Shown in pieces: positions 12,466 through 49,776 of a DNA stretch of 64,000 bases (its first letter is position 1; every line of letters begins with the position of its first letter). Position numbers and translations under genes: made by a program. The notes under the pieces are model-generated. The model saw only the letters and a list, made by a program, of their open reading frames with translations, had not been told where the DNA came from and made no database searches. The stretch lies in the IMG/VR virus record IMGVR_UViG_3300021431_000008; one strand, written 5' to 3'. Source of the stretch: a virus (Duplodnaviria > Heunggongvirae > Uroviricota > Caudoviricetes).

Positions 12466-15400
12466 TTATTGTGCAAAAGTCGCGAAATCACCATATTGAT
12501 TGATCGCGGCTATTGCGTCGTTCTTAAGTCCCTCGAAGTAACTCAGATCGATCGAGTCCTCAAGGTGACGTTCTTTGACGGTTTCGGCCTCAAGCCAGCG
12601 ATAATCCTTCGAACCAGCTGCATAACCGAACTTTCCGCCATTCTCCCGAACCAGACGACCTCCGCCATGTCCGGGCTTGATCGGGCAAAACAGACCTGCT
12701 TTCCCGACAAAGTGATAATCGTGACACTTTTTGATCTCTTCACGAATTTCGCACAAGCGAATATAATCCTTGTGAAATTCCTCCGAGACGTACTGATCGA
12801 GCTTTTTGTCTGAAATATCTGTCAGAACCGGATTGAAGCCGTCCGTCAGATTCTTATCATTCTCATCTGTAAGCTCAAACTGCACTTTATGCCACTTCTT
12901 GACAAGTTTGTCCTCTTCCTTCTCCAGAAGCTCCGACGAAGGCAGTTTCTCGTCCATATCCAAATATAAACCGAGACCGACCTTTACCGTCTGTGTCACG
13001 CACAGGTCATAAAAGCCAATCTCGTCATGGCTGAACAGAGTCTTGAATTCATAGGGAGAACTGTCTTCCTTGAACTGGTCGCCGGTTCCCTCCCATTTTC
13101 CTGCCGATTTGCCGTTCTCCGGATCGTTGGTGTACTTACAAATATAAACTGCGTTATTGACGAGACAGATCTTCTCGAACTTATGCTCGATTTCAAAGGT
13201 GTATCCGAACTTCTTGCCATAATCCATGACAAAGTTGTAGATCTTCTCGTCGGGGTTTGCGATCTTGATGGAATCAGTCTTCACATGAATGACCCGATAG
13301 CCCTGATCCTTGACTTTCAGCATCAGATCAATCATGAATAGTGCTCCGCGCTTTGCCACCCAGTTATCGTCGTTCCGAGGATCTCTTAGACGATTCGTAA
13401 AATGAGCCGCTGTAAGGCCGTAAACGCTATTGATTGCGATCTTCAGCGCTTTCGAGAGCTGTTTGGCATCTTCATCAGACGTCAGGTACGGAGCCAGAAT
13501 TCCGTTATAGAGCGAACGGACCCAGTCGTAGTCCTTATGCTTGATATGCAGACGAATATCCAGCAGCATCTTGAAGTTCTCAGTGTAAGGCCCAAAGCCA
13601 TTCTCAGCAATCAAAGACGAAGGATGGTGTGATGCCGAGTCGTAGCACTCGGAATATCCATACATACCCCAGTTAGCAAAGACAAAGCCGCCTTCGCCAG
13701 GGTCATAGCCCTTATACCAGCTCTTACCGGAGATCATCGTGCAACGATAGTAGGTCTTGCCTTCAACAGGAACCTCGTCTTTGGTCTTGTTGTACTTGCC
13801 GGAAATATCCAGCTCATAGAACTCGAACCTCTTCGGGTTACAGGTCGGCAGCATATCGTCTACGACGACCATATAGCGCTCCTTCGGGAAGCCATACGGT
13901 GAGAACTCATAACCCGGGAACAGTTTCGACAGATCAGGCTTAACAAACATCGCCTGCGGGTTTTTCTCGTTTCCAACGATCAGCTTCGTAGTAAGCGTAT
14001 TTGTCGAGTCATTGACGGTTGAACCGGGGCCTCTCAGCGCATTAGCCAACTCCACCAGAATTTCTCTGGCCCGGAAGTCCGACTGATTGGCATAGAACAC
14101 CTGCTCTGTCGCGATAACGTCGTTACAGCAATATTCCGCTACGCGTTTCCAGAGATTCTGCGGCACAGGCTTATCCCATGGCAGGCCTGCTTCATCGTGA
14201 CGAATATCCACGCCCTGCTTCTGTAACTGGATCTCCCACTTCTTAAGCCCCTTCTTATCGGAGCAGAAGTCGAAAATATCCGTGTAGCTGAGATTCTTCG
14301 ACTCATTGATCGTCCAATCATTACGGCCCTTTGGAGCGTTGATGATGTTCTGCGAACGAGTAAAGAGTTCAAAGATCGAATCGCCGCGAATTCTGGCATA
14401 GCAAATATGATTATCGTATCCGAGATTATTAAAACCGATCATGTTGTACGACTGGAACACACGCAGCACTTCATTCGGCTCCGGGTTAATCATCGTAATG
14501 CAATCCTGACCCATCGGTTTATAGACAAGAACGAACAGGTTCGGAAAGACCTCGGTATCGAAGAAGGCAATCTTCTTCTCTCCTTCTTTCGGCTCTACCC
14601 ATTCGGACTCTTCTTCGCTCTTATAAGGGAAACTCTCAGCCTTGTCCAAGCACTGAAGCGAATGATTGTGCGAAGCAGCGGCAAACGCCAGCACCTGAGG
14701 CTTCAGTTCACTCAGGTCATACTTCATCCCGCTCTCATAGGCCTCGTTCAAAACCTTCCCGATATAATCGACGCAACATACTGTCGAAAACGGGGAGATC
14801 TCCTTACGCAAAGCCTTTCTGACAGCAGCAAGCAAGTGCTTCTGATCTTCTATAGTGTACTCATTTACCGTTTTCGGATTCTCCTTTCTCAAAGGTAGAC
14901 CGGAACTAATCGTCGCAATGGGAATATCATTGCAGCGGGTCAGCTTCCTCCTCAAGCTGGCCTTTCCGGTATAGAACTTGATCTCGACGTCGTCTTCATA
15001 GATCGGCAGAACCTTCGAAATGTCACCGGTATAAATATAAGTCAGGTGAATCCCGGCTCCGCTCTTGCTTAGCTCTGCATAGGTAGGAGGCCACTTGGAT
15101 GCAGCCTTCATGTTGAGCTCCAATGACTTCTTTCCTGTCTTCGGATCCTTCTTGTCGAAGTCAACAAAACAGAACTGCTCAGGACATCTAAGATAGTGAA
15201 GCTCTGCCGTATTCAGATCCTTCAGAATCGTCTGGCAATCGTCCCACGGAACAGATGGCCGGTCGCTTCCGTCCTCCTTAATATAAGCATACTGAGCAGG
15301 CCAGTCTGAACCGATCTTATCCAGGATACTTTCTGTGGTGTTGAACTGGAGCCAACTGTCATTACTCTCTTTACTTTTCTTGTCTTTCTTCTCAGATCCG

Positions 15401-16695
15401 GCCGTTTCATCAAACTTTTCGATTCTTAAACCAGTATAAATATTTCTCTTGGGTTCGCCATGATAGTAACCACGCTCTTTGTAAACCAGAAAATAATTCT
15501 TAAGTTCTTCTTTTACGATTCTCTTGGAATAAGGATAAGGCACTTTTGCATCATCACAATACACACGATACTTAAACCAAATATCATCTAACAGTAACGA
15601 CTCCTCGCCTTTAAGCCATTCGTAATTTTCGAACATGAAGTTATAGAAATCGTTCGTCGCCGACATCATGCTAAGCGGAACATAATCGTCATAACAATGA
15701 GGATCTTCATTGTATACATCGAGACAATACGCTGCGATCGCCCCGAGCTCAAATCCTATGTTCTTCTTAAGCTGTATATAACGCCGATTCGGAATCTTGT
15801 TTCCGGTAGGTGAAATATCGATCAGTCGTCTAAGAAGACCGGACTTGGAATCCGTAATTTTCACAGGCGAATTCGTAGCAATGAAGAGCATCGTCTGAAT
15901 GCGCATCTCATACTTACTTTTAAACTTTTCGTTAATCGTCAAGGTTTCGTGCGAAACCAATGCGTTCAGTCGAGTGTTTGTTTCAATTCTACTCAACTGA
16001 CCATCCGGATCGATTGCTACGATCGGATTTGACTTAAACGATTCAAGAGCAAAGTCTGATGATCCGCTTCCCAAGGCTGCTGCTTCAAAATGTCCGCAAT
16101 AACCTTCAAACAAATTTTCTATAATTTCAAGTATTGTACCTTTACCGCATCCAGGGGCACCATAAAATACGAAGAACTTCTGAATCCAACGAGAATCACC
16201 ATTTACGATAGACCCTATAGCCCATTCAATCTTATGGCGTTCTTCAGGAGAATATAATGTTCCGACAAGCTCATTCCAATTGTCAATACTTCCATGTTCG
16301 AGGGCATACGGAACACACTTCGATGAATAATCTTCACGTTTCGGAACAGTATTCATAAACGTCAACGATTCATCGAGAGGGTGATAATTATCGCTTGTCT
16401 GTTTTGTTACATACTTTCGCCACTTATCGATGCTTCCGGAATCACTGTCCCACATATAAGCAACGTCAATATTATCGTAATCGCCTTTACGCTTTTCTTT
16501 ATACTCTTCAAGTTCCGCATCGATCAGGTCAATAACATCATCCCATTGCGTAGACCAGCGTTCATTACGTTCGTCCCAAATAGCATAAAAATCTCCGCCG
16601 CGAATCATAAGATCTTTACTTTGTTTTGTAATGAATTTCGGATAGACCAATGCCGGTTGTCCTGCTTTCTGCGGAATGCGCAAAGCTGGTTTCAT
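12466..16695 (-). CDS. fused replicase: D5N-like/SF3 helicase + AEP primase-like motifs + family-B DNA polymerase (3'-5' exonuclease and polymerase domains)
   Basis: P-loop FVFYGAPGCGKGT (aa ~177-187), Walker B IVAIDPDGQ, motif C FIATNSP. CFVDFDKKD and SGAGIHLTY (AEP DxD / SGxGxH). ExoI AFFDTEVFPNLF, ExoII GFNNLGYDN, ExoIII YCCNDVIATE. PolB motif B KIAINSVYG, motif C IHVKTDSI. Confidence 0.8.
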   Translation of the reverse strand: MKPALRIPQKAGQPALVYPKFITKQSKDLMIRGGDFYAIWDERNERWSTQWDDVIDLIDAELEEYKEKRKGDYDNIDVAYMWDSDSGSIDKWRKYVTKQTSDNYHPLDESLTFMNTVPKREDYSSKCVPYALEHGSIDNWNELVGTLYSPEERHKIEWAIGSIVNGDSRWIQKFFVFYGAPGCGKGTILEIIENLFEGYCGHFEAAALGSGSSDFALESFKSNPIVAIDPDGQLSRIETNTRLNALVSHETLTINEKFKSKYEMRIQTMLFIATNSPVKITDSKSGLLRRLIDISPTGNKIPNRRYIQLKKNIGFELGAIAAYCLDVYNEDPHCYDDYVPLSMMSATNDFYNFMFENYEWLKGEESLLLDDIWFKYRVYCDDAKVPYPYSKRIVKEELKNYFLVYKERGYYHGEPKRNIYTGLRIEKFDETAGSEKKDKKSKESNDSWLQFNTTESILDKIGSDWPAQYAYIKEDGSDRPSVPWDDCQTILKDLNTAELHYLRCPEQFCFVDFDKKDPKTGKKSLELNMKAASKWPPTYAELSKSGAGIHLTYIYTGDISKVLPIYEDDVEIKFYTGKASLRRKLTRCNDIPIATISSGLPLRKENPKTVNEYTIEDQKHLLAAVRKALRKEISPFSTVCCVDYIGKVLNEAYESGMKYDLSELKPQVLAFAAASHNHSLQCLDKAESFPYKSEEESEWVEPKEGEKKIAFFDTEVFPNLFVLVYKPMGQDCITMINPEPNEVLRVFQSYNMIGFNNLGYDNHICYARIRGDSIFELFTRSQNIINAPKGRNDWTINESKNLSYTDIFDFCSDKKGLKKWEIQLQKQGVDIRHDEAGLPWDKPVPQNLWKRVAEYCCNDVIATEQVFYANQSDFRAREILVELANALRGPGSTVNDSTNTLTTKLIVGNEKNPQAMFVKPDLSKLFPGYEFSPYGFPKERYMVVVDDMLPTCNPKRFEFYELDISGKYNKTKDEVPVEGKTYYRCTMISGKSWYKGYDPGEGGFVFANWGMYGYSECYDSASHHPSSLIAENGFGPYTENFKMLLDIRLHIKHKDYDWVRSLYNGILAPYLTSDEDAKQLSKALKIAINSVYGLTAAHFTNRLRDPRNDDNWVAKRGALFMIDLMLKVKDQGYRVIHVKTDSIKIANPDEKIYNFVMDYGKKFGYTFEIEHKFEKICLVNNAVYICKYTNDPENGKSAGKWEGTGDQFKEDSSPYEFKTLFSHDEIGFYDLCVTQTVKVGLGLYLDMDEKLPSSELLEKEEDKLVKKWHKVQFELTDENDKNLTDGFNPVLTDISDKKLDQYVSEEFHKDYIRLCEIREEIKKCHDYHFVGKAGLFCPIKPGHGGGRLVRENGGKFGYAAGSKDYRWLEAETVKERHLEDSIDLSYFEGLKNDAIAAINQYGDFATFAQ

Positions 16696-19635: not shown

Positions 19636-19660
19636 GAGTTTTCCTCCATAAATATAATTT

Positions 19661-19852
19661 TTATAGTTGATCCTTTTCTTCGATGCATTTATCGATTAAG
19701 TAGCGCACCGCTTTAATTTGCTCATCAGACATTGTAATAAGTGCTTCGCAAAAATCCCCTAGCGCGTTGAATTGATCATCTGAAAGAGAGAAGATTGCTT
19801 CACCGACTGTAATTTCTCCGCGCAAATCTGATAACTTTATGATTTCTCCCAT
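19661..19852 (-). CDS. hypothetical small protein
   Basis: 63-aa ORF. Confidence 0.4.
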   Translation of the reverse strand: MGEIIKLSDLRGEITVGEAIFSLSDDQFNALGDFCEALITMSDEQIKAVRYLIDKCIEEKDQL

Positions 19853-22713: not shown

Positions 22714-22726
22714 GTAACCCATCTCC

Positions 22727-23584: not shown

Positions 23585-23606
23585 ATAGTCATTACCTCCT
23601 CGAAAG

Positions 23607-26568: not shown

Positions 26569-27129
26569 TTACTGAAATTCCTTCCACAACATACTCGGCT
26601 GGATTCCGTTATTCTTCTGGTACTTACCGTGTGTATAGTGTACCGGAACGCCAACTTCACCCATACTATCGGTATCGGCAAGTGTATGATAATAGATCTG
26701 TCCGACTTCTACGCCTGGATAAATAATGACGGGCTGCACACAGGAGATTTCCAGTGTCCAATACCCGTCAAATCCGTTATCGCCAAAACCGGCCGTTGCG
26801 TGAATGAATATCCCGAGACGCCCAATGCTTGAACGCCCTTCCAACATGGGAACAAAACCATCCGTGAAAGTCCGCTCCTGTGTTCTTGCCAAATATAGCT
26901 TTCCTGGGATCAGGAGCTTTCCGGCGTTCGGAGAGATTCGTTCGATGGTATACGGCTCCTCTTTCTTCATGTCGAGAATACTGTGGTTATAAGTTAGTAG
27001 CTCATCGGCCAGATGAAGATTATAACTATTCGGATTCAGAAACTTTTTGTCGAACGGATCGATGACGATAGTTCCCTTCTCCACTTCTTCCAGAATCCGA
27101 TTCCCGCTTAGAATGCCGTAATCATTCAC
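26569..27129 (-). CDS. dcd: dCTP deaminase (Dcd/dUTPase-fold)
   Basis: GRSSIGRLGIFIHATAGFGDNGFDGYWTLEISC aligns with Dcd [33 protein letters not shown]; GTG start with GAGGAGG RBS chosen over the in-frame TTG. Confidence 0.75.
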   Translation of the reverse strand: MNDYGILSGNRILEEVEKGTIVIDPFDKKFLNPNSYNLHLADELLTYNHSILDMKKEEPYTIERISPNAGKLLIPGKLYLARTQERTFTDGFVPMLEGRSSIGRLGIFIHATAGFGDNGFDGYWTLEISCVQPVIIYPGVEVGQIYYHTLADTDSMGEVGVPVHYTHGKYQKNNGIQPSMLWKEFQ

Positions 27130-27448
27130 CTTTCCTGACCTCCTCAACGATCTTTTCTTTCCATTTGGGGCTTTTGTTCATACTCTCGACTAATTGTTTT
27201 GCCGCAAGCTGACAAATATATTCCCGGTTTTCGCTTAGCACATTTCGCACTTCATCCTTGACCCAGTCCTGAAAGCCACGATCCGGATCTCCATGTTTTG
27301 TGTATCCGGATCCCCAGCCCTTATTAAAAATACCATCGATCACAGACTGCTTGAGTTCGTTATTAATGTGATCCACACAGCTTTTTTCGACAATATCTTT
27401 GACACGCTGATCATCAAAGTCGAATGCGATCTGAACTACATGCTGCAT
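27122..27448 (-). CDS. hypothetical protein
   Basis: 108-aa ORF. Confidence 0.45.
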   Translation of the reverse strand: MQHVVQIAFDFDDQRVKDIVEKSCVDHINNELKQSVIDGIFNKGWGSGYTKHGDPDRGFQDWVKDEVRNVLSENREYICQLAAKQLVESMNKSPKWKEKIVEEVRKGE

Positions 27449-27462
27449 AAGTATTGTCTCCT

Positions 27463-27855
27463 TTAAACTTCAATTCCGTAAAGCTGATACATGACCCAGG
27501 CTCCGATTTGTCTAGAACCGGCTTTTTTCGTTTGTGAATTGGCAATCGTCATAATTCGGTCAGCAAGTGCATCTCGTTCTTCATCACCGATATCCGCGTT
27601 TTCGATGAATTTATCGTAGAGATCACTATATTCACAAACATGATCGCACTGCTCAAGGAAAATGTGAAAGACACTTCGATAAGCGAGAAAATCATACATA
27701 CGCCAATAGCTCTTTTTCAGTTGGTTTCTCAGTGTCATTCGTGAAATCCCAAGAGCATCTGCGAATTCTTCACAACTTAGGCCAAATGCGGTTCTAAGTG
27801 GATTAAAATACTTTCGCATGCGTTCCATTTCTTCCCGTTCAATAAACGTTTCCAA
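27463..27855 (-). CDS. HTH (XRE-like) DNA-binding protein
   Basis: LSCEEFADALGISRMTLRNQLKK. Confidence 0.55.
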   Translation of the reverse strand: METFIEREEMERMRKYFNPLRTAFGLSCEEFADALGISRMTLRNQLKKSYWRMYDFLAYRSVFHIFLEQCDHVCEYSDLYDKFIENADIGDEERDALADRIMTIANSQTKKAGSRQIGAWVMYQLYGIEV

Positions 27856-28044
27856 TTAATTCAGCTCCTTATCGAGATCAGAATTATCAAGCCAGGTTTT
27901 AAATGTCTTAAAACACTTGTTGCAGAGGTTGATTGGTGCTCCGGAATATCCGTAACGAACAATCTGTACGGCATTCGTGTAGGCTTGCGAGACTGTACCA
28001 CAGCGATAGCACTTATCTTGAGTTACAAGACTGGAATTAAACAT
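27856..28044 (-). CDS. small Zn-ribbon protein
   Basis: CYRCG...CNKC; start trimmed to reduce overlap with the upstream gene. Confidence 0.35.
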   Translation of the reverse strand: MFNSSLVTQDKCYRCGTVSQAYTNAVQIVRYGYSGAPINLCNKCFKTFKTWLDNSDLDKELN

Positions 28045-28897
28045 CTTTTTCCTGCTCTTTCTTCGGAATATACTTCTTGAACCGGTTTTCATCCCCGACT
28101 CCGAAGTCCTCAAAGCTCATATCGTACTCTTTCATACGCTCAAGAATGGCATTAGCAAGAGTTTCTTCGTCTTTCGGATCGACATAGTTAAAGAACCGGA
28201 TAGCAGACTTCACGTGAGCAGCATCCGGCATTGGAAACTTTCGCTCTTCCGGAAAGGCATACTTCCGCTTCTTAAGTTCTTCTTCACTGAGTTCGTCGCT
28301 GTGGGCGATCACCAGCGTATCAGGACCATTCGCCCAGTCGATTCCCTTCCACACGACTTCCGTATCCGGATGCTCAAAGGCCATCTGCATCTTGAGAACC
28401 GTGAAAATATCATGCAGCACACTCTCGACAACGAGTCTGGTCTTGGCATTCAGGATCATGTGGTCGCGATGAGCCTGATACCAGTTAAACATTTCAAGCA
28501 GATTATTGTTCTTCCAGCTGAAAGTCCACCAATCGGCGATCATTTCATAAACGTACTCCAGCGGCATTTCCAGAACCTTTCCGAAGGATCCGACGTTGGG
28601 ATCGTCTTCAAGCAGAACCCAGTGCTGCCAGTGGTGCGGGTTCTCGTGAATATGATGGAGCCACGCCCGGTTAAACTCATCCACTACTTCAAACGTCCGA
28701 TTCTTTCCGTAGAAGTAGGCGTCATAAGCGTCATACTCTTCCTTGGTCCACTTACTGGCATCATGTTGCTCTGCGTTCAGAATTGCTTCAGCCAGCTTCT
28801 CTCCGTCAAGTGTCGTGAGATTATCCTGCATCCACTTAAGACCAAGCTTTAGATTTTCAATGTGATCATGAATATACTTGTCGTACTCAATGCTCAT
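28037..28897 (-). CDS. hypothetical His/Trp-rich protein
   Basis: 286 aa; WLHHIHENPHHWQHWV motif; no family recognised. Confidence 0.5.
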   Translation of the reverse strand: MSIEYDKYIHDHIENLKLGLKWMQDNLTTLDGEKLAEAILNAEQHDASKWTKEEYDAYDAYFYGKNRTFEVVDEFNRAWLHHIHENPHHWQHWVLLEDDPNVGSFGKVLEMPLEYVYEMIADWWTFSWKNNNLLEMFNWYQAHRDHMILNAKTRLVVESVLHDIFTVLKMQMAFEHPDTEVVWKGIDWANGPDTLVIAHSDELSEEELKKRKYAFPEERKFPMPDAAHVKSAIRFFNYVDPKDEETLANAILERMKEYDMSFEDFGVGDENRFKKYIPKKEQEKDV

Positions 28898-28910
28898 AAT
28901 TCTTCTCCTT

Positions 28911-29105
28911 TTAAGAAAGTTTAAAGACGACCATTCCGAGGGTAACCAGCAAGAGTGTCAGTCCGACAAACAGAAAAGCTCCGGAATAGACAAAGTAGTT
29001 ATTCGTGATCTCATCGGTGCCGCCTTTCTTACGGACACTATAGGCATGATTAAACGCGATTCCGAGAAAGAGACAGGCGATTGCGCAGATAAACAAAACT
29101 TTCAT
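28911..29105 (-). CDS. small two-TM membrane protein (holin-like topology, speculative)
   Basis: 64 aa; two hydrophobic helices separated by a RKKGG loop. Confidence 0.45.
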   Translation of the reverse strand: MKVLFICAIACLFLGIAFNHAYSVRKKGGTDEITNNYFVYSGAFLFVGLTLLLVTLGMVVFKLS

Positions 29106-29659
29106 TCATTTTCTCCTTCCGCATGAATTTCATAGGGATTCTCAACGGCGGGAATATCAATTGACTGCGTAAACTTAGATGCCTGATAGAACGGATCCAG
29201 AATACCTACAGCGTTTGGATCAATGAAAATTTGAGAGCCCTCGATCCGCTCTTTAATCTGATCGATCACGTTCTGCGGAATATCAATCTGGAACTTCTGC
29301 ATGAGTTCGTTGAGCTCGGCAAACTGCTCATAGATCTCCGAATAGCGGCCTTCGATGCTCCTCCAGCAATCCAGAAGTTTCTTGTGCTGCTCGCCAAGGC
29401 TCTTTACATGGTCATTCATTGCCCGATAAACATTGAGTTCTTTTTCAAGTAGATCTTTCTGGGAGTTAAATACTTTATGCAGACTTTCAAACTTCGCATC
29501 GATATTTTTCATGGTGCGCTCATAACAGTCGCACATTTCCTTATAGACCGGAAGCACTTCACCGAAGTACTCTTCGATCTTCCGGCACACAACGATCCCG
29601 ACCGCGATGATTGTAAACTCAATAATGATAAGTCCAGCCAAAAGAATCCAGTTGCTCAT
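29102..29659 (-). CDS. N-terminally membrane-anchored coiled-coil protein
   Basis: 185 aa; TM WILLAGLIIIEFTIIAVGIVV. Confidence 0.5.
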   Translation of the reverse strand: MSNWILLAGLIIIEFTIIAVGIVVCRKIEEYFGEVLPVYKEMCDCYERTMKNIDAKFESLHKVFNSQKDLLEKELNVYRAMNDHVKSLGEQHKKLLDCWRSIEGRYSEIYEQFAELNELMQKFQIDIPQNVIDQIKERIEGSQIFIDPNAVGILDPFYQASKFTQSIDIPAVENPYEIHAEGENE

Positions 29660-29840
29660 TTAAATCTCCTTTCATTGTTCCTGTAACTTTGTCACCGTTT
29701 ACGTATACGGTTTCGCCTGAGCGAATATCTTCATTGTCAAATGTTTCCCTGTAGGTTTTTTCAAACCACCCTAAGAGGATACCAATACTCCCTGCGAGGA
29801 TGAGTTCGCCAATACATTGCAAAACTTGTACAACAGTCAT
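29619..29840 (-). CDS. small membrane protein (start trimmed to MTVVQVL, GAGGAGAAG RBS)
   Basis: 74 aa; overlaps the 3' end of the upstream gene by ~80 nt, so uncertain. Confidence 0.35.
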   Translation of the reverse strand: MTVVQVLQCIGELILAGSIGILLGWFEKTYRETFDNEDIRSGETVYVNGDKVTGTMKGDLNEQLDSFGWTYHY

Positions 29841-30471
29841 CGTATTTCTTCTCCTCGTGGTATTTATCATAGAGGTCTTTAGCGATACGCCCCATGTAAT
29901 GCCAGCCGTCTTCAGATCCGTCATAAAAAATTCCTATGAGTTGACCGGCTTTCTTTGCATCTGTACAACTCAAGAGATCTTCCCATAGATCCTCGTTTTG
30001 CTGAAGAGACCAGAATATAAACTCGCATTGCATTCTAGCGTCGCCAATCGTGCTTCCATACTCCATTGCAAAATCGTAAAGAGTATGCAAATATCCGGTC
30101 GAATACCATTGGCCTAACCCAAAGCCTCCGCATGACCGGATTGCCTCAACAAAAAAATCTCTGCTGGATCCATCGGAAAGACCTGCATTCGTCTTTTCTC
30201 CGACATATCCGCAGAGATCAAAATTGTCTCGGGCTTGTAAAGTTGCCCAGCCGGTTACACTGTCACTCCGGTATTGGCTTTCTCTCCAGAAATAAGCCAG
30301 TACACCTGCTGTAATATAATCGTTTGGGCTGTGTTTGCTTAGCTCCTCCCATAGCCAGGCTTCATCTTCCTCACTTTTTCTTTCCGTATACTTTGGCTCT
30401 TCCGCATAAGCTTGGATCGGAATCACGAAAAGTATTGAAAATATCATCAGGAAGATTAAAAGACGTTTCAT
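29761..30471 (-). CDS. secreted lysozyme-like protein (same N-domain family as the endolysin at 3793..4623)
   Basis: signal peptide MKRLLIFLMIFSILFVIPIQAYA; FWRESQY...GGFGLGQW motif parallels GESAF...GFGYIQW. Confidence 0.55.
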   Translation of the reverse strand: MKRLLIFLMIFSILFVIPIQAYAEEPKYTERKSEEDEAWLWEELSKHSPNDYITAGVLAYFWRESQYRSDSVTGWATLQARDNFDLCGYVGEKTNAGLSDGSSRDFFVEAIRSCGGFGLGQWYSTGYLHTLYDFAMEYGSTIGDARMQCEFIFWSLQQNEDLWEDLLSCTDAKKAGQLIGIFYDGSEDGWHYMGRIAKDLYDKYHEEKKYDDCCTSFAMYWRTHPRREYWYPLRVV

Positions 30472-30489
30472 AGGAGTTCCCTTCTTTGT

Positions 30490-30720
30490 TTATAGTTTTT
30501 CGTCGTTTGTAATACCCGCCAATGCAGGCTCGTTGTACCACAGCACAAAATCTCTGGCACAGTCTTCGCAAAGATCTGCATAGCGCATTTCGTGTACATC
30601 TGGATTCACCCAGTCGATCCGGACAATGGGAACATCATGAAGACGCGTTTGTGAACTTTTCCCTCGTTCCGCGATCTGCGCATATAGTTTCCCGCATCGA
30701 TCACATTTCCAGGCTTGCAT
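30490..30720 (-). CDS. small Zn-finger protein
   Basis: CDRCG ... CEDC. Confidence 0.45.
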   Translation of the reverse strand: MQAWKCDRCGKLYAQIAERGKSSQTRLHDVPIVRIDWVNPDVHEMRYADLCEDCARDFVLWYNEPALAGITNDEKL

Positions 30721-31166
30721 TAAAGTCCCAACCTTTCTGCTTTCATTTTAGCGTACCAATCCTGTGCGATTTTTAATGCATGATCTTCATTTTTGGCCAT
30801 AATAAGTCCTTCAAAAACTTTAGATCCCCAAGATATCGGTGTAAAACATTTATACTCGTTTTCAAAACTGTTCAGTTCGTAGCGATTTATCCAAGCTCTC
30901 CATTCAATTCCATTTTTCTCTATATAGCTACGAACAGTCCATACGGGCCTTAGATTTTGAAGTTCATTGGTCTCCGGACTTTCTGGATCACCGTCGATGA
31001 ATTCTTCAATTTGAGCTTCATCGCCACGCCTTGTGTAATACTTCGCCAGAACTTTCGCTCGTTCATAGTCGGATGTGAGAGCGCAAATGCCGTAATCGGA
31101 ATATTCACCGCTCGTTATTGCATAAAGGATCTTTCTCTCATTTCCGTTGTTTTCTGAGCTCATCAA
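30720..31166 (-). CDS. hypothetical protein
   Basis: 148-aa ORF. Confidence 0.5.
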   Translation of the reverse strand: MMSSENNGNERKILYAITSGEYSDYGICALTSDYERAKVLAKYYTRRGDEAQIEEFIDGDPESPETNELQNLRPVWTVRSYIEKNGIEWRAWINRYELNSFENEYKCFTPISWGSKVFEGLIMAKNEDHALKIAQDWYAKMKAERLGL

Positions 31167-31443
31167 TAGCTTCCTCCATCGTTAAAAATATCGTGTGCCC
31201 AAAGTCGTATTCGGTTACTTCCATTCCAGCCGGATAATCGTGAAAATGTGCGTGCTCATGGCCGTTGAAAGATAATAGTGTATAAAGGCATTGTCCCTCC
31301 GATCCGAATACAGAAATCTCTTTCACAATGTATGCCCGAATCTCGCCTTTATATACAAAGAATACTTTTTCTTTCGGTGCAACGACAAAGTTAAACGTTA
31401 CCACATTCCCTGCACCTGACCTCTGCGAATATCTTCGTCCCAA
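31138..31443 (-). CDS. hypothetical protein
   Basis: 101-aa ORF. Confidence 0.45.
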   Translation of the reverse strand: MGRRYSQRSGAGNVVTFNFVVAPKEKVFFVYKGEIRAYIVKEISVFGSEGQCLYTLLSFNGHEHAHFHDYPAGMEVTEYDFGHTIFLTMEEAIDELRKQRK

Positions 31444-31714
31444 TCAGCTTTTTTCTTCTTTCGGCTCGCTTTCCCTTTCAGAATCAGGATCGCAGTTTTT
31501 TGTCGCTCGTTCTCTTCTTTCAGTTTCTGATACTCGTCATAGAGAAAGCTGATGTACTCCGCTGTACGATGAACGCCTTTTATACTTGCATCCATGACTT
31601 TTTTCTCAAATATCTGTGCATGTCCGGATTCTGCTAAAGGATAGGCAAGACTTTTTTCCGTGACGCTAAGGGTCTGTAATGTTCGTCCGAAGTCTATTTC
31701 AATGTCCACAAATA

Positions 31715-32263
31715 TCACTTCTCTCCTTCCCAGCACTGAATGAAGTTATAGATTGCTTCGACAGTATTCGTAAAATCATGATTCGGAATAGTCATCCGAT
31801 AAATTATATCTTCGTCCAAACTATCTGGCCCGAAAGATAAATCGTCCTGCAATTCTCGTTTTGAAATATCTTCATCGGAATCACCTCGCTGTTTCATGCG
31901 TTCAATTCTGACTTTCCATGGAGCATAAATACGGATCGGCACAATAAGTTTATTTCTTTCATAGTGTTCAGACAGATACTTCACCCCATACGGATCAATG
32001 ACGTAAATATCATGGGTATCAACAATGTCATCCGTTACTCCGTAGCGATAACCATTGTACTCGGTATAGGCGCACATCGGCCCAAGAGCGTCGAACTCTT
32101 CATTCGTAACAAAAACATGACCTCTCTCACCGTCGTAGCGAGGAGGCCTGGTCGTATAGGATTCTACAGCTTTGTATCCGTATGTTGTCTGTAATTCGTT
32201 GGCGATAGATGTCTTTCCGCTTCCGGATGGACCGACGATAAGATAAATATTTTTAAGGCTCAT
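31715..32263 (-). CDS. guanylate-kinase-like nucleotide kinase (phage dNMP kinase candidate)
   Basis: P-loop GPSGSGKTS and TTRPPRYDGERGHVFVTNEEF (GMK signature TTR..R.gE.dG.dY.FV). Confidence 0.65.
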   Translation of the reverse strand: MSLKNIYLIVGPSGSGKTSIANELQTTYGYKAVESYTTRPPRYDGERGHVFVTNEEFDALGPMCAYTEYNGYRYGVTDDIVDTHDIYVIDPYGVKYLSEHYERNKLIVPIRIYAPWKVRIERMKQRGDSDEDISKRELQDDLSFGPDSLDEDIIYRMTIPNHDFTNTVEAIYNFIQCWEGEK

Positions 32264-32555
32264 GATTTAATTTGTCCTTCCATTCTTCGATTGTTTTTGT
32301 TCGCTGCTTTGCAAGGCCCGGGCTAAGCTGTCGGTTCAATTGTTCGCCGATCGCATCAGCTTTTCTTAAGAAAGCATTAGCTCCTAATACATAGAAATCC
32401 TTATGATAGCCATCGACTTCTATTGCAATCCCCATTGGAAGAACTAGAAATCCGTAAACTTGTTCTTCTTTTATTTCACAGTTTTCATCTAAAATATAAA
32501 CTTTACTTAAGAAATCGCACGGAAGATCAACCTCATATCGAAGCGGATTACTCAT
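32253..32555 (-). CDS. hypothetical protein
   Basis: 100-aa ORF. Confidence 0.45.
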   Translation of the reverse strand: MSNPLRYEVDLPCDFLSKVYILDENCEIKEEQVYGFLVLPMGIAIEVDGYHKDFYVLGANAFLRKADAIGEQLNRQLSPGLAKQRTKTIEEWKDKLNHEP

Positions 32556-32723
32556 ATAAGTGTCGTTCCTTTCTAAAAATTGTTTGTATTTTGGTCTGAT
32601 TTTTCTTTTCAGTAATTATCATTCATACAGCAGTCATATTCGTAAAAGATGTCGAGAAGCTTGTCCAGCTCTTCAGAAATTCCTTATCATCAAGCGTCAG
32701 AAGATATAGTGTTTGCATGATTA

Positions 32724-33158
32724 TTAGTCCTCCTCAATCTTTATCGGCCAAAGCGGTTCGCAATAATACGGAATATCAGTAGGCATAGCGATGGATGTGA
32801 AAACTTCTTTGCAGTAAGGGCATCTTGCCGGATTTACGTCACGATGAAGATAATCATACATAACAGGTTTATCATCCGGCTCGTCTACTCTGCGAAGCTT
32901 TACTGTTTCTCGTCTTTCATCAATTCCGATTGTTTCGCCCCATAAAACTTGATGACAGTGGCTACACACAGGAAGAAAGTCAATAACTGCCATATTTAAT
33001 CTCCTTTTATAAAATCTCAAACGCTTCATGAAACTCTGCATCGTAAAAAGTCCAATAAACGGTCTGCGCTTCGTCATAGACTTTGTAATAGTGAGTTCCG
33101 AACTGATCCCATTTCTCTTCAAATATAAATGTCTGTCCGTGGTTAACTGGTTTTTCAT
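32724..33158 (-). CDS. hypothetical Zn-binding protein
   Basis: CSHCH ... CPYC. Confidence 0.45.
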   Translation of the reverse strand: MKNQLTTDRHLYLKRNGISSELTITKSMTKRRPFIGLFTMQSFMKRLRFYKRRLNMAVIDFLPVCSHCHQVLWGETIGIDERRETVKLRRVDEPDDKPVMYDYLHRDVNPARCPYCKEVFTSIAMPTDIPYYCEPLWPIKIEED

Positions 33159-33197
33159 TCCACGTGCTAATTTCGGCTTTCATGGTACAGAATCTAT

Positions 33198-33626
33198 TCA
33201 TACTGTTTCCTCTTTAAACGGTTCTACAATGTCAAAACGTTCCTCAAATTCTTTAGGCGTATACTTTATAACTCCACAGTCAACTCCGGGAGTCCGCACT
33301 TTATAGCCTTTGAGTTTATGGCGTTTCGGAGTGACGATCGGTTCGTAGGCTAACATTAGCGGGTTTTCAAGATAATTCCGTTTGCATTTACCCAAAATTT
33401 GACCATGCTCATTGAATAACTTCGTCTGACTCCAGTCAATCATATCGAAAATATTGTAAAGAGTTCCGTGCTCGTTTCTGAAAATGGACTCAAAATCAAG
33501 AATTATACCACGATTATTTACGTGAATATCTGTAACCAAATACTCTTTTCCATCGCATGCTGTGAATTTATCTCCGAGACCTATTCCGAGCCTTTCTCTC
33601 CAATACTGTGTCCTAAAGTCGCTCAT
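33198..33626 (-). CDS. hypothetical protein
   Basis: 142-aa ORF. Confidence 0.5.
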   Translation of the reverse strand: MSDFRTQYWRERLGIGLGDKFTACDGKEYLVTDIHVNNRGIILDFESIFRNEHGTLYNIFDMIDWSQTKLFNEHGQILGKCKRNYLENPLMLAYEPIVTPKRHKLKGYKVRTPGVDCGVIKYTPKEFEERFDIVEPFKEETV

Positions 33627-33637
33627 TCAACTCTCCT

Positions 33638-34093
33638 TTACCAATTATTATTCAAGCAGCATCCGTATTCCTGAAATACGTCGAGAAGCTTATCTAGAAC
33701 CTCACAATAGGTGGCATACTCATCATCCGTTAATTCCTTCAGAGTTTTTGCACAATCATATTTTGATGTCTTCAATCTATAACTATGATTATCGGCAGAA
33801 ACACAATTTCGTTGTTTATTGCCTCTCAAGAAACAGCATCTGCGAATGAGGCTACTCAGGTTCATGAGATCTTTATAGCTCATAAAAGGAAAGTGATTGT
33901 ATTCCCACGCAACACCCTTTTTCATAAGTCCACCGTGTTTTTCAGCGACTTCCTTTGGGCACATTGATCGGCGAGATTGCTTTTCTTCGGGAAGCATAGC
34001 CCTAAGCTCACGAACTTCAGCTTCCAGATCTTGAATTCTCTGCTGTAATTCTACTTTCTCATCCATTTCATCTAGTCTCCTTTCTAGTATCAA
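33638..34093 (-). CDS. hypothetical coiled-coil protein
   Basis: 151-aa ORF. Confidence 0.5.
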   Translation of the reverse strand: MILERRLDEMDEKVELQQRIQDLEAEVRELRAMLPEEKQSRRSMCPKEVAEKHGGLMKKGVAWEYNHFPFMSYKDLMNLSSLIRRCCFLRGNKQRNCVSADNHSYRLKTSKYDCAKTLKELTDDEYATYCEVLDKLLDVFQEYGCCLNNNW

Positions 34094-34100
34094 AATATCA

Positions 34101-34177
34101 TGGTGGACCGTCTGGGACTTGAACCCAGGACCTGAGGTTTATGAGACCACTGCTCTGACCGACTGAGCTAACGGTCC
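34101..34177 (-). tRNA. tRNA-Met (CAT)
   Basis: minus strand GGACCGTTAGCTCAGTCGGTCAGAGCAGTGGTCTCATAAACCTCAGGTCCTGGGTTCAAGTCCCAGACGGTCCACCA; acceptor, D-arm and T-arm pair; anticodon loop CTCATAA; encoded CCA. Confidence 0.8.
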
Positions 34178-34437
34178 ATTTCCATTAGTGGGTGACAAAG
34201 TGCATTGATATAAGCTGTATGCGCTTCTTTTTCGAGCTCTTTGGCTTCCTCCCATTTTTGTTTGTAGATAGATACTTCATAGGCTTGTTCGTATCCCTCG
34301 TTTTCAAGGCATTCTAAGTAACCTTCTAATGCATACCAGCTAATAATATCGTAATCAATCTTTTTGCCATCCCTGAATTTACAGACACATACATTGTCGG
34401 AGTAAGCCTCTTCGATAGTGTATTGTAATTTACTCAT
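34168..34437 (-). CDS. hypothetical protein
   Basis: 89-aa ORF. Confidence 0.45.
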   Translation of the reverse strand: MSKLQYTIEEAYSDNVCVCKFRDGKKIDYDIISWYALEGYLECLENEGYEQAYEVSIYKQKWEEAKELEKEAHTAYINALCHPLMEMDR

Positions 34438-34467
34438 TTTGTTGTCTCCTTTCTAAATCTACGAAAA

Positions 34468-34543
34468 TGGCTGAGACGGCAGGATTTGAACCTGCGAATA
34501 ACGGAGTCAAAGTCCGCTGTGTTACCCACTTCACCACGCCTCA
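34468..34543 (-). tRNA. tRNA-Gln (TTG)
   Basis: minus strand TGAGGCGTGGTGAAGTGGGTAACACAGCGGACTTTGACTCCGTTATTCGCAGGTTCAAATCCTGCCGTCTCAGCCA; anticodon loop CTTTGAC. Confidence 0.75.
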
Positions 34544-34562
34544 AAATATAAGAAAAAAGCAG

Positions 34563-34594
34563 AAGAACTGCAATGAGTCCTTCTGCAATGGAAG
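34563..34594 (-). terminator. rho-independent terminator (GCAGAAG/CTTCTGC stem + T6 on minus)
   Basis: aaaaaagcagaagaactgcaatgagtccttctgc downstream of the 34595..34897 CDS. Confidence 0.6.
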
Positions 34595-34897
34595 TCAGAC
34601 CAAACCGAATCTAAAGTGATCTTTACTCTTTAAGAAATCGTAGAACATAATGTGTTCGGTAGTTTGCTTGTAGTTTGCAAGCTTCGTCAGATCCTTGTAC
34701 TCTCGCCCGACTTCGTAAGAGCCGTCGACCACAATCACTTCCGTAGTATTCAACTGCCGCAGCATTCGATTTGCTGTCTCGCGAATATTCTGGATAGTGA
34801 TCCAGTCGCCTCTCAGATGCCAGGGATTTCCCTGAAGCTGATGAAGCTTATCAAAACCATAGAAATATACCCGATTTTCTTTATTATTTTCATACAT
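34595..34897 (-). CDS. hypothetical protein
   Basis: 100 aa; promoter-like box at 34956..34977 upstream. Confidence 0.5.
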   Translation of the reverse strand: MYENNKENRVYFYGFDKLHQLQGNPWHLRGDWITIQNIRETANRMLRQLNTTEVIVVDGSYEVGREYKDLTKLANYKQTTEHIMFYDFLKSKDHFRFGLV

Positions 34898-34955
34898 TTT
34901 CTTTTCCTCCTATAAAAATTAGTTAGTTTTTTATGTCTGTCTCCTCATAATAGGA

Positions 34956-34977
34956 ATTGTAAAATATACGAAAAAAG
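34956..34977 (-). promoter_or_regulatory. copy of repeated promoter-like box + hairpin
   Basis: attgtaaaatatacgaaaaaag followed by the agagcgaggt...acctcgctct hairpin. Confidence 0.5.
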
Positions 34978-35122
34978 AGCGAGGTAGAGCCTCTCTGGAC
35001 TCTTTGACCTCGCTCTTAAACGACCAGAAAACCTTGAAAAGCTGGTCCATAGCTTCATCCTCGCCTTAATAGCCCCGATCCTTCGCTATGTTTTTCGGCT
35101 TCTTCATTAGAAGCTCCGGTCC

Positions 35123-35207
35123 TGGTACCGCTGAAGGGACTTGAACCCTCATGACTCTCGTCGGCAGATTTTAAGTCTGCTGTGTCTACCTATTCCACCA
35201 CAGCGGC
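35123..35207 (-). tRNA. tRNA-Leu (TAA), type II with long variable arm
   Basis: minus strand GCCGCTGTGGTGGAATAGGTAGACACAGCAGACTTAAAATCTGCCGACGAGAGTCATGAGGGTTCAAGTCCCTTCAGCGGTACCA. Confidence 0.75.
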
Positions 35208-35258
35208 AAATATAAAAGCAAGGAGCCTGTCGATGTTGACAAGCTCCTTTCTGTCTGC

Positions 35259-35528
35259 TTATGCTTTTTTAAGGATTTCTCTTCGATACGAGTCTCCTAG
35301 TTCATAGATCTTGTGACCAACATCGGCGTGCCCCGTCGTGAATAATTCATTCGTAAGATTATTCCAGAATGCGTCTTCGTCAATGTTTCCTTTCGTTTTG
35401 ATGAGTACATATCCCAAATCGATGGCTACCAATGGCGTATTAACGCACTTCCAAAAGATCTTATGGTACTTATTATGACTACGTTTATCCCGACGCATCG
35501 CCATTAGTGTTCTCTCAAAAAGTCTCAT
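35259..35528 (-). CDS. hypothetical protein
   Basis: 89-aa ORF. Confidence 0.45.
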   Translation of the reverse strand: MRLFERTLMAMRRDKRSHNKYHKIFWKCVNTPLVAIDLGYVLIKTKGNIDEDAFWNNLTNELFTTGHADVGHKIYELGDSYRREILKKA

Positions 35529-35583
35529 AAATATCCTCCTTAAATTTTGTAAGCATATAGCTCCATTTAAAGAGTTGTAATAA

Positions 35584-35865
35584 TTACGATGCCTCTACCT
35601 CTTTTGTAGCATTAATGATTGCATTTATTTCGTATTTCATGGCTTCTACAATTCTTCGTCTGCAATCGGGACAAAGATCTTGAACTGGTAGACTTTCGCC
35701 AAGGATCGCCATATCATTGTGTACCCAACCTTTTGGTAAATCTTCAAACATTTCGTCTTTGCAACGATAACCTCCGTTTAGAAATGTATTTTCATTTATC
35801 GCTTTGCTGAAAATAGTTGTTTTACATACCGAACAAGTTGTGAGACGTCCTACTATCTGAGACAT
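35584..35865 (-). CDS. Zn-ribbon protein
   Basis: CSVCK ... CPDCRRR. Confidence 0.45.
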   Translation of the reverse strand: MSQIVGRLTTCSVCKTTIFSKAINENTFLNGGYRCKDEMFEDLPKGWVHNDMAILGESLPVQDLCPDCRRRIVEAMKYEINAIINATKEVEAS

Positions 35866-36053
35866 GCTCCGGCCTCTCCTTCTGAATCAAACTCGATCTT
35901 GGCTTTAATGACGTTCGCTTCGTACTCTCCAGGACCGTAACCACGCGTTTCCTTCGTGACAAAGATATTTACGTCCTCCTGCGTGAGATTGTTATAGTGC
36001 TCAGCGATGATCTGACAAATATCACTTTCATTTAGTTCGACAGTAATTTTCAT
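35853..36053 (-). CDS. hypothetical small protein
   Basis: 66-aa ORF. Confidence 0.4.
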   Translation of the reverse strand: MKITVELNESDICQIIAEHYNNLTQEDVNIFVTKETRGYGPGEYEANVIKAKIEFDSEGEAGACLR

Positions 36054-36577
36054 TCGAGGCTTACTCCTTCAGGAAGCGTTACTACGGCATTATCAAGTTC
36101 AGTTAAAGCTGAGAGAGATTGATTGATTTTTTCGAGTTTACTTTCTGCATGGTTGAGATCGAACTTCAGCTTCCAAATATCATGCTGCAGATTTTCCTGA
36201 TCGGATAACAGGGCTGCTCGTTCTGTTTGGTTTTTCGCCACGTTCTGAATAAAGTCGTGCAGCGGTGTCGGATCATCGAGCAGAAACCATGCCGTAAAAC
36301 CGCCCCAGCAGCGTCCCCATGCCTTAAGCCCTTTTGCAATTTGCATCTTCATAGCTTTCTGGACTTTCTCATCTGCTTCGGTGTAAATATCCGAAGAATC
36401 ATAGCAGTTATACGGCTTGAGTGTGAGTCGCTTCAGTTCATCGCTTCCGGGCTGAATCACATAAATATAATGCTGATTGGAATAGGCGATCGGCAGCTTT
36501 TCGATATGAGCTTTCAGATCTCCGCCGATAGTAAAACGATAAATGAAGTGATACTTGCTCAGGTATTTATAGTTCAT
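36050..36577 (-). CDS. hypothetical protein
   Basis: 175-aa ORF. Confidence 0.5.
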   Translation of the reverse strand: MNYKYLSKYHFIYRFTIGGDLKAHIEKLPIAYSNQHYIYVIQPGSDELKRLTLKPYNCYDSSDIYTEADEKVQKAMKMQIAKGLKAWGRCWGGFTAWFLLDDPTPLHDFIQNVAKNQTERAALLSDQENLQHDIWKLKFDLNHAESKLEKINQSLSALTELDNAVVTLPEGVSLE

Positions 36578-36784
36578 TTAATACATCCTCCCAGCCATAG
36601 CATTTGATACCTGATTTGATACATCATTGACAACTCCGACCCGCTCGAGAATATAACCATCCTGAAGCATACTTTCGACAGATTCCGGAATCTCAATGTC
36701 GACGACGGCCTGTTCGGAATTATCGATAACGGAAAGCTTTGAATAGTCGTACTTATACTTGCGCATGACAAAACGAATCATCAT
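36578..36784 (-). CDS. hypothetical small protein
   Basis: 68-aa ORF. Confidence 0.4.
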   Translation of the reverse strand: MMIRFVMRKYKYDYSKLSVIDNSEQAVVDIEIPESVESMLQDGYILERVGVVNDVSNQVSNAMAGRMY

Positions 36785-37293
36785 AGTAGCTTATCCCTTT
36801 CTCTTTTCCATAGAATTTCTTCGATTCTGGATTCCAGTGTATCAGTAAAGATCCCTACTTTAAAAACATGGCTCGGCGCAAATGAGAGGAGATAGTCAAT
36901 ATCTTCGTCGAAATGCTCTTTGGCTCGTTCATAAGCTCGATAGTTTTTAGATATTTGATCCCTCATAAAGCGATCGTGCAGTCTCTTAATCCACTCGTAT
37001 TTCAGTTCTTTTGCTGGGCAGACAATATAAGGACCGGAAACAGCAAGTCTTCGCATCTCCGGAGCGTGATCATGCATCCATTCGATAACTTCCACGTGCG
37101 TTGAGCAAAGAACGATATAACCTTGTTTAGCAAGATCAAGAGCTACACGACCGTACTGCTCGATCCAATAATGACTGCAATCTGGCGGTCCGAAAAACTT
37201 AAAATTACTGCTCTCCAGATCGATAATATTATCTTTTCCGGCGATTGTTGTTTTTCCAACTCCCGGATATCCGCAAATGATAACTCCGTTCAT
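36781..37293 (-). CDS. P-loop NTPase / nucleotide kinase-like protein
   Basis: N-terminal Walker A ICGYPGVGKTT; size (170 aa) fits NMP/dNMP kinase or polynucleotide kinase. Confidence 0.55.
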   Translation of the reverse strand: MNGVIICGYPGVGKTTIAGKDNIIDLESSNFKFFGPPDCSHYWIEQYGRVALDLAKQGYIVLCSTHVEVIEWMHDHAPEMRRLAVSGPYIVCPAKELKYEWIKRLHDRFMRDQISKNYRAYERAKEHFDEDIDYLLSFAPSHVFKVGIFTDTLESRIEEILWKRERDKLL

Positions 37294-37359
37294 ACTCGCA
37301 CCTCACTACATTACTACCAGAAATCCGATAGTGTATTCCATTCGATGCGGTTCATACAT

Positions 37360-38169
37360 TCAGGTCTCCTCCAATGTAATGATTTCAGAGTACGGCAATG
37401 TCTTAATCCAACTACAGAACTCTCTCCACTCATCGAGCTTGTGATCCTTACGCTTTGGATAGATTCCGGCCAGAACCTCATAATTCAGCATGACTGTTCG
37501 ACGCTGATTATAAGAACTCGGAAGAAGCTGAATCATTTGCCACCAATACTTTTTATCTTTAGTTTCGAGAAACATTTCTCGCGCACGATTTAACATCGAA
37601 ATTGTAAGATCGAGCAAATTTGAGGGTGAAAAACGAGCAAGTTCTTCTTCGAGGTCATTGCTTCCAAAACCGACTGCAATTGTCGGAATTTCCATAGGAC
37701 TTCCGTCAGGAAGCAATTGTTCATCTGAAAAATCTTGTCGTGTAAATTTCTTTGCATGAATCTTATGCATGGTAGAACAGCTATTTGCGACTGTTCCAAC
37801 CTTATAGGTATCAAATTCTTTCCACCAGTAAAGCGGAGCCGTAATATCAACCGTAACAACAATCATCCGGCGATACTTGGAATCTACCGAACCAGCTTTA
37901 GCGAGATTCATCATGAGTTTATGATCGTTAGGGCCCAGTTGAAAATATTCCGTTTCATAATTCGTGTTTAATCGATCCCAATCAAACCATTCTGGGTAAT
38001 CGTAATCGCCGTCGTCTTTATCATATGTAATGCCATTAATATCATGTCCGACTTCCGTGAATGTAGAAAAAAATACACTATCGCTTTTCTCCCAACTATT
38101 CATCGGATTTCTCATTCCACGAATAGCTGCCTCCCAGCCAAGAACTTCAGTATTTTCAAGTTTAATCAT
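37360..38169 (-). CDS. ThyX-fold (flavin-dependent thymidylate synthase family) homologue with non-canonical active-site motifs
   Basis: APLYWWKEFDTYKVGTVANSCSTMH aligns with ThyX [24 protein letters not shown], but RHR becomes TYK and S..S.RY becomes S.STMH. RRTVMLNYEVLAGIYPKR resembles ThyX FWTVNARSLMNFLNLR. Start trimmed to MIKLENTEV with GGAGGA RBS. Confidence 0.5.
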   Translation of the reverse strand: MIKLENTEVLGWEAAIRGMRNPMNSWEKSDSVFFSTFTEVGHDINGITYDKDDGDYDYPEWFDWDRLNTNYETEYFQLGPNDHKLMMNLAKAGSVDSKYRRMIVVTVDITAPLYWWKEFDTYKVGTVANSCSTMHKIHAKKFTRQDFSDEQLLPDGSPMEIPTIAVGFGSNDLEEELARFSPSNLLDLTISMLNRAREMFLETKDKKYWWQMIQLLPSSYNQRRTVMLNYEVLAGIYPKRKDHKLDEWREFCSWIKTLPYSEIITLEET

Positions 38170-38577
38170 TAGTCTTCCTCCAGAATCTTTTCGCAAATCA
38201 GACAGACCATTCTCCCTTCCGGAATGATTCGTCCGCAACAGACACAGTATTCCATTATTCACGTCCTCCTTTATATTCGAGAATAAATACAGTATCGAGA
38301 ACTGAACCGTTTTTTCTATAAACGTGAATCATTTCGGCTTGATCATTTGTAGTTTTTTCCAAGCAGCCTAAGTAACATTCCGTTGGAATTCGCTGCGAAT
38401 ATGTTTCGTTAAGATATTCCATCGCTCGTTCAATAGCTCTTGCACGTGTCCGAGTAATAAAGATACAGTTAATAAAATCACCGTCATCAGTAACAACCAC
38501 GTAGTCTTTAATAAGATACCCTCCTTAAAAAAAAATAAAAAGGGCCATCAGATCGCTCCAATGGCCCAAAATATCAT

Positions 38578-49691: not shown

Positions 49692-49776
49692 ATATAATGT
49701 AAGCTTATAGCTCCATTTATGAAGTTGTAATTCTTACGAAAGCATGTTATACTTCCATTTTGAAGGAGGAATGCCG

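Follow-up and report, generated by a model that had tools for sequence, protein, structure and literature searches.

Two families of enzymes, ThyA and ThyX, are held to account for thymidylate synthesis, the second of which is a drug target and is known by its RHR and SxRY motifs. PolB (4p5a), a UMP/dUMP methylase of polyoxin biosynthesis, retains both the ThyX signature and the flavin adenine dinucleotide (FAD) cofactor, and genomes encoding ThyX, in work attributed to Myllykallio in 2003, are said often to be without folA. The active site of ThyX lies between monomers, according to Leduc 2004 as cited in PMC5954106, and it is ThyA, not ThyX-type enzymes, that produces dihydrofolate, so that a link to dihydrofolate reductase (DHFR) is unusual for enzymes of the ThyX type (PMC5954106). 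Here we analyze a ThyX-like protein encoded in a stretch of 64,000 nucleotides (the window) of the Caudoviricetes record IMGVR_UViG_3300021431_000008 from IMG/VR.

A previous, sequence-only reading of the window had placed this gene in one region with those for a dCTP deaminase (Dcd), a guanylate-kinase-like protein and a second P-loop kinase, and had seen in this set, and in the altered ThyX signature, a hint of non-canonical bases in the viral DNA. The four open reading frames are present as described, all on the minus strand (Table 1), and the nucleotide-metabolism character attributed to them is correct. The analysis presented here favours another role for the ThyX-like protein, which on balance, and with modest confidence, we interpret as an unrecognized, divergent enzyme of the thymidylate-synthase type, built on the ThyX fold and supplying deoxythymidine monophosphate (dTMP). 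The literature we searched contains no description of this family, in anti-defence or third-thymidylate-synthase contexts either, and no model in Pfam, NCBIfam or PHROGs names it.

Relationship to ThyX

The connection with ThyX is made through other members of the family. Because P0403, with 52% identity to the window protein and a first stretch of 31 residues that departs from it only by conservative I/L and V/T changes, scores 32.2 bits on the Pfam Thy1 model (cut-off 24.8), homology of the family to ThyX is established. A further member, P0498, reaches 23.6 bits on the same model, under its cut-off, and distant members still read RY[RH] and GH[DE]xxF, as in ThyX. The window protein itself has the ThyX (Thy1) fold. 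An earlier assertion that it clearly aligns with the ThyX core was right in its fold call and in the register, which is the same, but was overstated for a protein with no significant sequence match to ThyX. Since homologues begin MIK(L/I)EN, the true start is the ATG at 38169, the GTG at 38262 being unsupported. A first structure model, built from 44 close homologues, was poor (predicted local distance difference test score, pLDDT, 69.6) and was replaced by one built with 104 diverse sequences.

Compared with ThyX/Thy1 (PF02511; 3ah5, 5chp/1o26, 2af6, 4fzb), the family preserves the order of the motifs and differs in two variable insertions, at about 31-78 and 150-185 of the window protein. 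Residue equivalences, in T. maritima numbering, were assigned from motif spacing, predicted secondary structure and the distant members. By this assignment S88 (as S132, which is invariant), P151 (P217), N163 (N229), R174 (R240) and H178 (H243) are kept, with N229, R240 and H243 at the same spacing from P217 as the ThyX N...R...H motif from P151. The remaining signature positions differ: R78-H79-R80, which in ThyX contacts the phosphates of FAD and dUMP, has become T121-Y122-K123, R90-Y91 has become M134-H135, both invariant, R147 has become I213 and R165 has become E231. The replacements of RHR by TYK and of S..S.RY by S-C-S-T-M-H, to which the sequence-only reading had drawn attention, are present in the window protein and conserved, TYK in the phage and cellular clades alike. 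Across the 104 diverse members, P22, L89, G93, Y122, S132, M134, H135, P217, R240, H243, L258 and P259 do not vary.

Two cysteines were considered as nucleophiles and rejected. C131 occupies the S88 position or the one beside it, but distant members have T, E or Q there, which makes a ThyA-like cysteine nucleophile unlikely, and C252 is absent from PMBT24 and is not among the columns conserved at 90% or more. Taken with the kept equivalents at N229, R240 and H243, the lack of a conserved cysteine would favour a flavin-type chemistry, and, with RHR and the counterpart of R165 both lost, the usual way of holding the ADP part of FAD would not be available.

Fusions within the family bear on the architecture of the site. 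Five members of about 450 residues (P0391, P0392, P0393, P0394 and P0396) are tandem duplications of the ThyX-like domain, in which the N-terminal copy retains the P22 loop, GH, RYR and R..H and has lost SxSxMH, and the C-terminal copy retains SQSTMH and has lost the other motifs. As the decay is complementary, each fused pair should hold one complete site, a pattern which indicates that the active site of the family is probably shared between subunits, as it is in ThyX, a homotetramer. Homing-endonuclease modules (HNH, NUMOD4 and helix-turn-helix, HTH) stand in frame right after SxSxMH in P0267, P0350, P0353, P0362 and P0367; conserved sites in important phage genes are frequent targets of such elements.

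Cellular relatives beside DHFR

A compact form of the protein, of 205-213 residues and with TYK, NS[TC]STMH and R..H as in the phage clade, is encoded in cellular genomes. Its loci are plainly chromosomal, on contigs of up to 1.02 Mb with MetG, TatD and RuvAB-like neighbours, and homologues of the window's phage replication genes were found in none of them. This subgroup has no Pfam or NCBIfam match, and it differs from ThyX/Thy1, as the window protein does, in being missed by both PF02511 and TIGR02170. Two loci (L134 and L165), and 17 of the 68 metagenome loci that extend far enough downstream, have a DHFR gene (PF00186, E=4e-47) as the next gene downstream in the same orientation, the distance between the two ranging from -58 to +35 nt. 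Genes for PyrK/NfnA-like and GltD/NfnB-like oxidoreductases usually follow, and a NUDIX gene often lies upstream. In other cellular loci the ThyX-like gene is adjoined by Dut and SHMT, or by thymidylate kinase (Tmk).

A place beside DHFR is, by analogy, that of a housekeeping thymidylate synthase. The arrangement resembles the ThyA-folA operons of Firmicutes and frd-td of T4, where the synthase gene likewise adjoins DHFR and dCMP deaminase, Dut, Tmk and SHMT are near; it differs from them in that ThyA has an unrelated fold and in that no family-wide conserved cysteine is available as a ThyA-type nucleophile. The often direct coupling to folA also separates the family from ThyX. Of 117 positions with conservation of at least 95% in the phage clade, the cellular clade shares 83, every motif residue included, and one and the same chemistry is therefore to be expected of phage and cellular proteins. 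Since the DNA of cells is canonical, dTMP would be the simplest product of that chemistry.

Distribution and genomic context in phages

The family comprises at least 8,000 clusters at 90% identity and at least 4,662 at 50% identity (E<=1e-3), with matches from more than 587 species genomes, mostly of Lachnospiraceae, Oscillospiraceae and Ruminococcus. Temperate phages and integrated prophages often carry it. The hosts of cultured carriers are anaerobes of the genera Clostridium, Clostridioides, Enterocloster, Fusobacterium and Desulfovibrio; these carriers include the C. perfringens phage XP41-N3 (38.6 kb), the Desulfovibrio phage ProddE, which is temperate and T7-like, the Enterocloster phage PMBT24 and the Fusobacterium phage Fnu1.

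Neighbouring genes were counted in 171 related phage and prophage loci, with flanks of 10 kb for most. MazG is a neighbour in 32 of these loci, NrdD in 26, a kinase of the Gmk/dNMP type in 10, Dut in 8, dCMP deaminase in 7, Dcd in 4, a homologue of the P-loop protein in 3 and SHMT in 2; one or another of the enzymes that supply deoxyuridine monophosphate (dUMP), namely MazG, Dut, dCMP deaminase or Dcd, is present in 50. The family thus keeps the same genomic company as ThyX (dUMP supply, SHMT and kinases). Not one of the 171 loci has a canonical ThyA or ThyX, which fits functional replacement.

Dcd, the two kinases and the ThyX-like gene are not a conserved module. In the window the four genes do share a region, as had been proposed, falling within 11.7 kb, but they are scattered there among more than 30 other open reading frames and three tRNA genes, and of Dcd and the kinases only the P-loop gene abuts the ThyX-like gene, an adjacency retained in a close relative (L006). 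Other associations are found elsewhere. In a 92-kb relative (L005), Dcd, the ThyX-like gene and SHMT lie inside 5.7 kb; about 8 kb from this trio, at 18513-19745, is a gene of the adenylosuccinate synthetase family (PurA- or PurZ-like). The contig of P0437 carries the ThyX-like gene followed by a Guanylate_kin-fold kinase, NT5C and glutaredoxin, the kinase gene overlapping the end of the ThyX-like gene. In the complete genome of ProddE the ThyX-like gene is near NrdDG, a kinase and a MazG annotated with a DR2231-type NTP pyrophosphatase (NTP-PPase) domain, and the whole-genome annotation includes no thymidylate synthase. The published annotation of PMBT24 similarly lists a dUTPase and an anaerobic ribonucleotide reductase, and no thymidylate synthase (PMC11035940).

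The most frequent named neighbour is DUF5662, found in 44 of the 171 loci and directly upstream in 11 of the first 83, and present in the window with a DUF6582 C-terminus. Its invariant residues (H12, H45-D46, H82, H88-H89 and D122) form a pattern whose resemblance suggests a possible HD-type metal site; as an HD hydrolase it was set aside, there being no PDB or Pfam HD match. A protein with HAD and Tad3 domains follows in frequency (42 of 171). Its Tad3 domain (type I Thoeris inhibitor, PF25185, E=1.4e-28; e.g. L022:7825-8892) lies at most 1.5 kb from the ThyX-like gene in 30 loci, and its N-terminal segment is HAD-like, with a weak HAD_PNKP match (E=0.038); the window does not encode this protein. 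About 1 kb upstream of the ThyX-like gene, at 39231-40301, the window encodes an SPFH/Band-7 membrane protein. SPFH genes are also near the ThyX-like gene in ProddE and near gp173 in AR9 (listed loci L087:5937-6827 and L171:7946-8752); a link between SPFH and the ThyX-like family was not retained, as it was seen in only 4 related loci.

Dcd and the two kinases

The assignment of Dcd withstands a strict test, the protein scoring 101.7 bits against the cut-off of 92.8 for the NCBIfam equivalog TIGR02274. Its catalytic motifs are intact, GRSSIGRLG and TLE aligning with GRSSLARLG and E138 of E. coli Dcd, and it would supply dUTP, or dUMP if bifunctional. The guanylate-kinase-like protein can be followed to the level of the domain, where it also matches PDB guanylate kinases at E=5e-7, but not to that of the equivalog TIGR03263 (48.4 against 160.45 bits). 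As for the second kinase, it is indeed a P-loop protein, with weak similarity to AAA_18 (Pfam), and a candidate dNMP (dTMP/dUMP) kinase. Its only homologues in the phage database are AR9 gp173 (30% identity; tblastn E=3e-5) and the PBS1 equivalent, both uncharacterized proteins.

Proposed activity and alternatives

In the interpretation we favour, the ThyX-like protein would be an oligomeric enzyme with a pocket formed, as in ThyX, by two neighbouring subunits. One subunit would contribute the N-terminal R-x-x-R-N-P loop, the K98/R101 segment, T121-Y122-K123, N229, R240 and H243, and the other the S130-x-S132-x-M134-H135 loop, and the activity would be a folate-dependent transfer of one carbon to C5 of dUMP, giving ordinary dTMP. 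Within the phage, Dcd would convert dCTP to dUTP, with dUMP then arising through a host dUTPase or, if Dcd is bifunctional, from Dcd itself; the ThyX-like enzyme would convert dUMP to dTMP, the adjacent P-loop kinase would take dTMP to dTDP, and the Gmk-fold kinase would serve other dNMPs.

The explanation advanced in the sequence-only reading is that the ThyX-like protein modifies a pyrimidine nucleotide, for instance to hydroxymethyl-dUMP, and that with Dcd and the kinases it places non-canonical bases or dU in virion DNA. Loss of the canonical ThyX signature is consistent with this, as are one member fused to DUF1599 (Pfam 'Nucleotide modification associated domain 1'), with DUF1599/Nmad1 genes near in 6 of the 171 loci, the occurrence of the sole phage-database homologues of the P-loop protein in phages with dU-DNA, and the presence among the Dcd matches of YerA41, a phage whose DNA is reported to be modified. 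Pathways of this kind (hydroxymethyl-dU, hmdU, in SPO1; hydroxymethyl-dC, hmdC, in T4; dU-DNA in PBS1/AR9) indeed share with the window a deaminase, dNMP kinases and, through AR9 gp173, the P-loop protein, but their known C5-modifying enzymes belong to the ThyA family, as does the dUMP hydroxymethylase that acts with a 5-hmdU DNA kinase and transferases in an hmdU or thymidine-hypermodification pathway, and phmmer found no ThyA homologue in the window or the 171 related loci, a search that did not extend to glycosyltransferases or further hypermodification genes. For the dU-DNA phages, whose features are inhibitors of uracil-DNA glycosylase and of dUTPase, a dTMP phosphatase and a dUMP kinase, only Dcd and the gp173 homologue were seen, Ugi-like inhibitors being undetectable by the methods used, and haloviruses usually have Dcd beside a canonical thymidylate synthase. 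With a gene set that is not conserved, carriers that are frequently temperate phages or prophages, no canonical synthase alongside, and cellular orthologues that bear the same active-site residues and lie with folA in operons of a housekeeping kind, non-canonical DNA is left as an unsupported inference, which we regard as very unlikely. A canonical function, despite the change in motifs, now seems more likely than a pyrimidine-modifying one.

Two further explanations start from the residues that are missing. Replacement of the phosphate-binding arginines R78, R90 and R147 of ThyX would suit a folate- or flavin-dependent methylase with the ThyX fold and a substrate other than dUMP, such as dCMP, RNA uridine or, as PolB does, UMP, although the family differs from PolB in being without the ThyX signature. 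Such an activity is hard to reconcile with neighbours that are deoxynucleotide enzymes producing or consuming dUMP and dTMP (dCMP deaminase, Dut, MazG, Tmk, NT5C and DHFR) and with phage loci that have no canonical thymidylate synthase alongside, and we think it improbable. The disappearance of most catalytic and FAD-binding residues of ThyX could instead point to a protein that has given up catalysis and serves as a nucleotide-binding regulator or sponge, as a poison subunit for host ThyX or as an anti-defence factor, and the phage copies do lie in early regions that also hold anti-defence genes (Tad3-domain and Lar-like). Near-invariance of about 80 positions over the phage and cellular clades and the preservation of one composite site in the tandem fusions both speak against a non-catalytic protein, and a chromosomal DHFR operon is hard to explain for an anti-defence factor; we judge this explanation, too, to be unlikely.

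Several observations weigh against a thymidylate-synthase-type enzyme as well. The window protein has no match in Pfam, NCBIfam or PDB sequence and profile searches, and alignment of its family to a 121-sequence ThyX alignment with hhalign is non-significant (E=0.07-0.17), a result that bears also on the residue equivalences. The register at 120-135 is uncertain by one residue, the hhalign alternative aligning MHK with RHR. R78, H79, R80, R90, Y91, R147 and R165, the defining residues of every characterised ThyX, are missing. In one chromosomal locus (L208) a canonical ThyA lies 1.9 kb away, so the family is not always the sole thymidylate synthase. As to genomic context, which is indirect evidence, the commonest named partner, DUF5662, is without established function and has relatives sometimes fused to the toxin domain Ntox50 or to DUF7211, and many other neighbours are unknown proteins or anti-defence genes.

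Other features of the window

The window reads as the early replication and nucleotide region of a phage of about 96 kb with a gut Clostridium-type host. It is a segment of a phage genome with nearly all genes on the minus strand, and besides the polymerase/primase it encodes a helicase, an exonuclease and a single-stranded DNA-binding protein; megablast of the region against phage genomes gave no match. The phrog_4291 protein has an N-terminal HTH or sigma-region-4-like segment, and about 30 related loci keep it next to the exonuclease; a single-subunit RNA polymerase of phage type is its probable identity. A tyrosine integrase suggests a temperate lifestyle.

Table 1. Coordinates of features in the window and of the DHFR-linked cellular cluster
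Feature	Position	Strand	Remarks
1040-aa phrog_4291 protein	6566-9688	minus	phrog label 'RNA-dependent RNA polymerase', E=5e-302
DNA polymerase/primase	12466..16695	minus	
Three paralogous DUF6353 proteins	18634-19635, 21736-22722, 22727-23833		in a row
dCTP deaminase (Dcd)	26569..27129	minus	Pfam DCD E=5.9e-37
DUF5662 protein	28037..28897	minus	
Gmk-fold NMP kinase	31715..32263	minus	Pfam Guanylate_kin 32.8 bits (cut-off 25.2); phrog_1815 E=7e-37
tRNA-Met(CAT)	34101-34177	minus	inside the four-gene span
tRNA-Gln(TTG)	34468-34543	minus	inside the four-gene span
tRNA-Leu(TAA)	35123-35207	minus	inside the four-gene span
P-loop kinase-like protein	36781..37293	minus	170 aa; 66 nt downstream of the ThyX-like gene
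ThyX-like protein	37360..38169	minus	269 aa; phrog_6721, unknown function
Tyrosine integrase	49744-50823	plus	opposite to almost all other genes
Gut Clostridia cluster: NUDIX, ThyX-like, DHFR, PyrK/NfnA-like, GltD/NfnB-like	L134:10001-13474; L165; 17 loci among L179-L258		

Conclusions

The gene set of the window is not to be taken as a marker of modified DNA. A bolder view of the family, which we hold to be unlikely, is that its TYK and SxSxMH motifs define C5-pyrimidine one-carbon transferases of a mechanistically new class, built on the ThyX fold, either a thymidylate synthase that has ceased to bind FAD in the manner of ThyX or an enzyme whose phage copies make a modified dUMP. In the first version, tight coupling to DHFR would fit a cycle that produces dihydrofolate, or another redox cofactor suited to anaerobes. 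If this were true, thymidylate-type enzymes would be of three kinds, and the third would be widespread among gut Clostridia and the phages of these bacteria while escaping annotation as it now stands. Should the ThyX-like protein prove, as we favour, to be an active thymidylate synthase, residues held to be essential for ThyX chemistry would not be universal, metabolic reconstructions of gut anaerobes and catalogues of phage auxiliary genes would be missing a core enzyme, and predictions of susceptibility to antifolates and ThyX inhibitors would need to be revisited.

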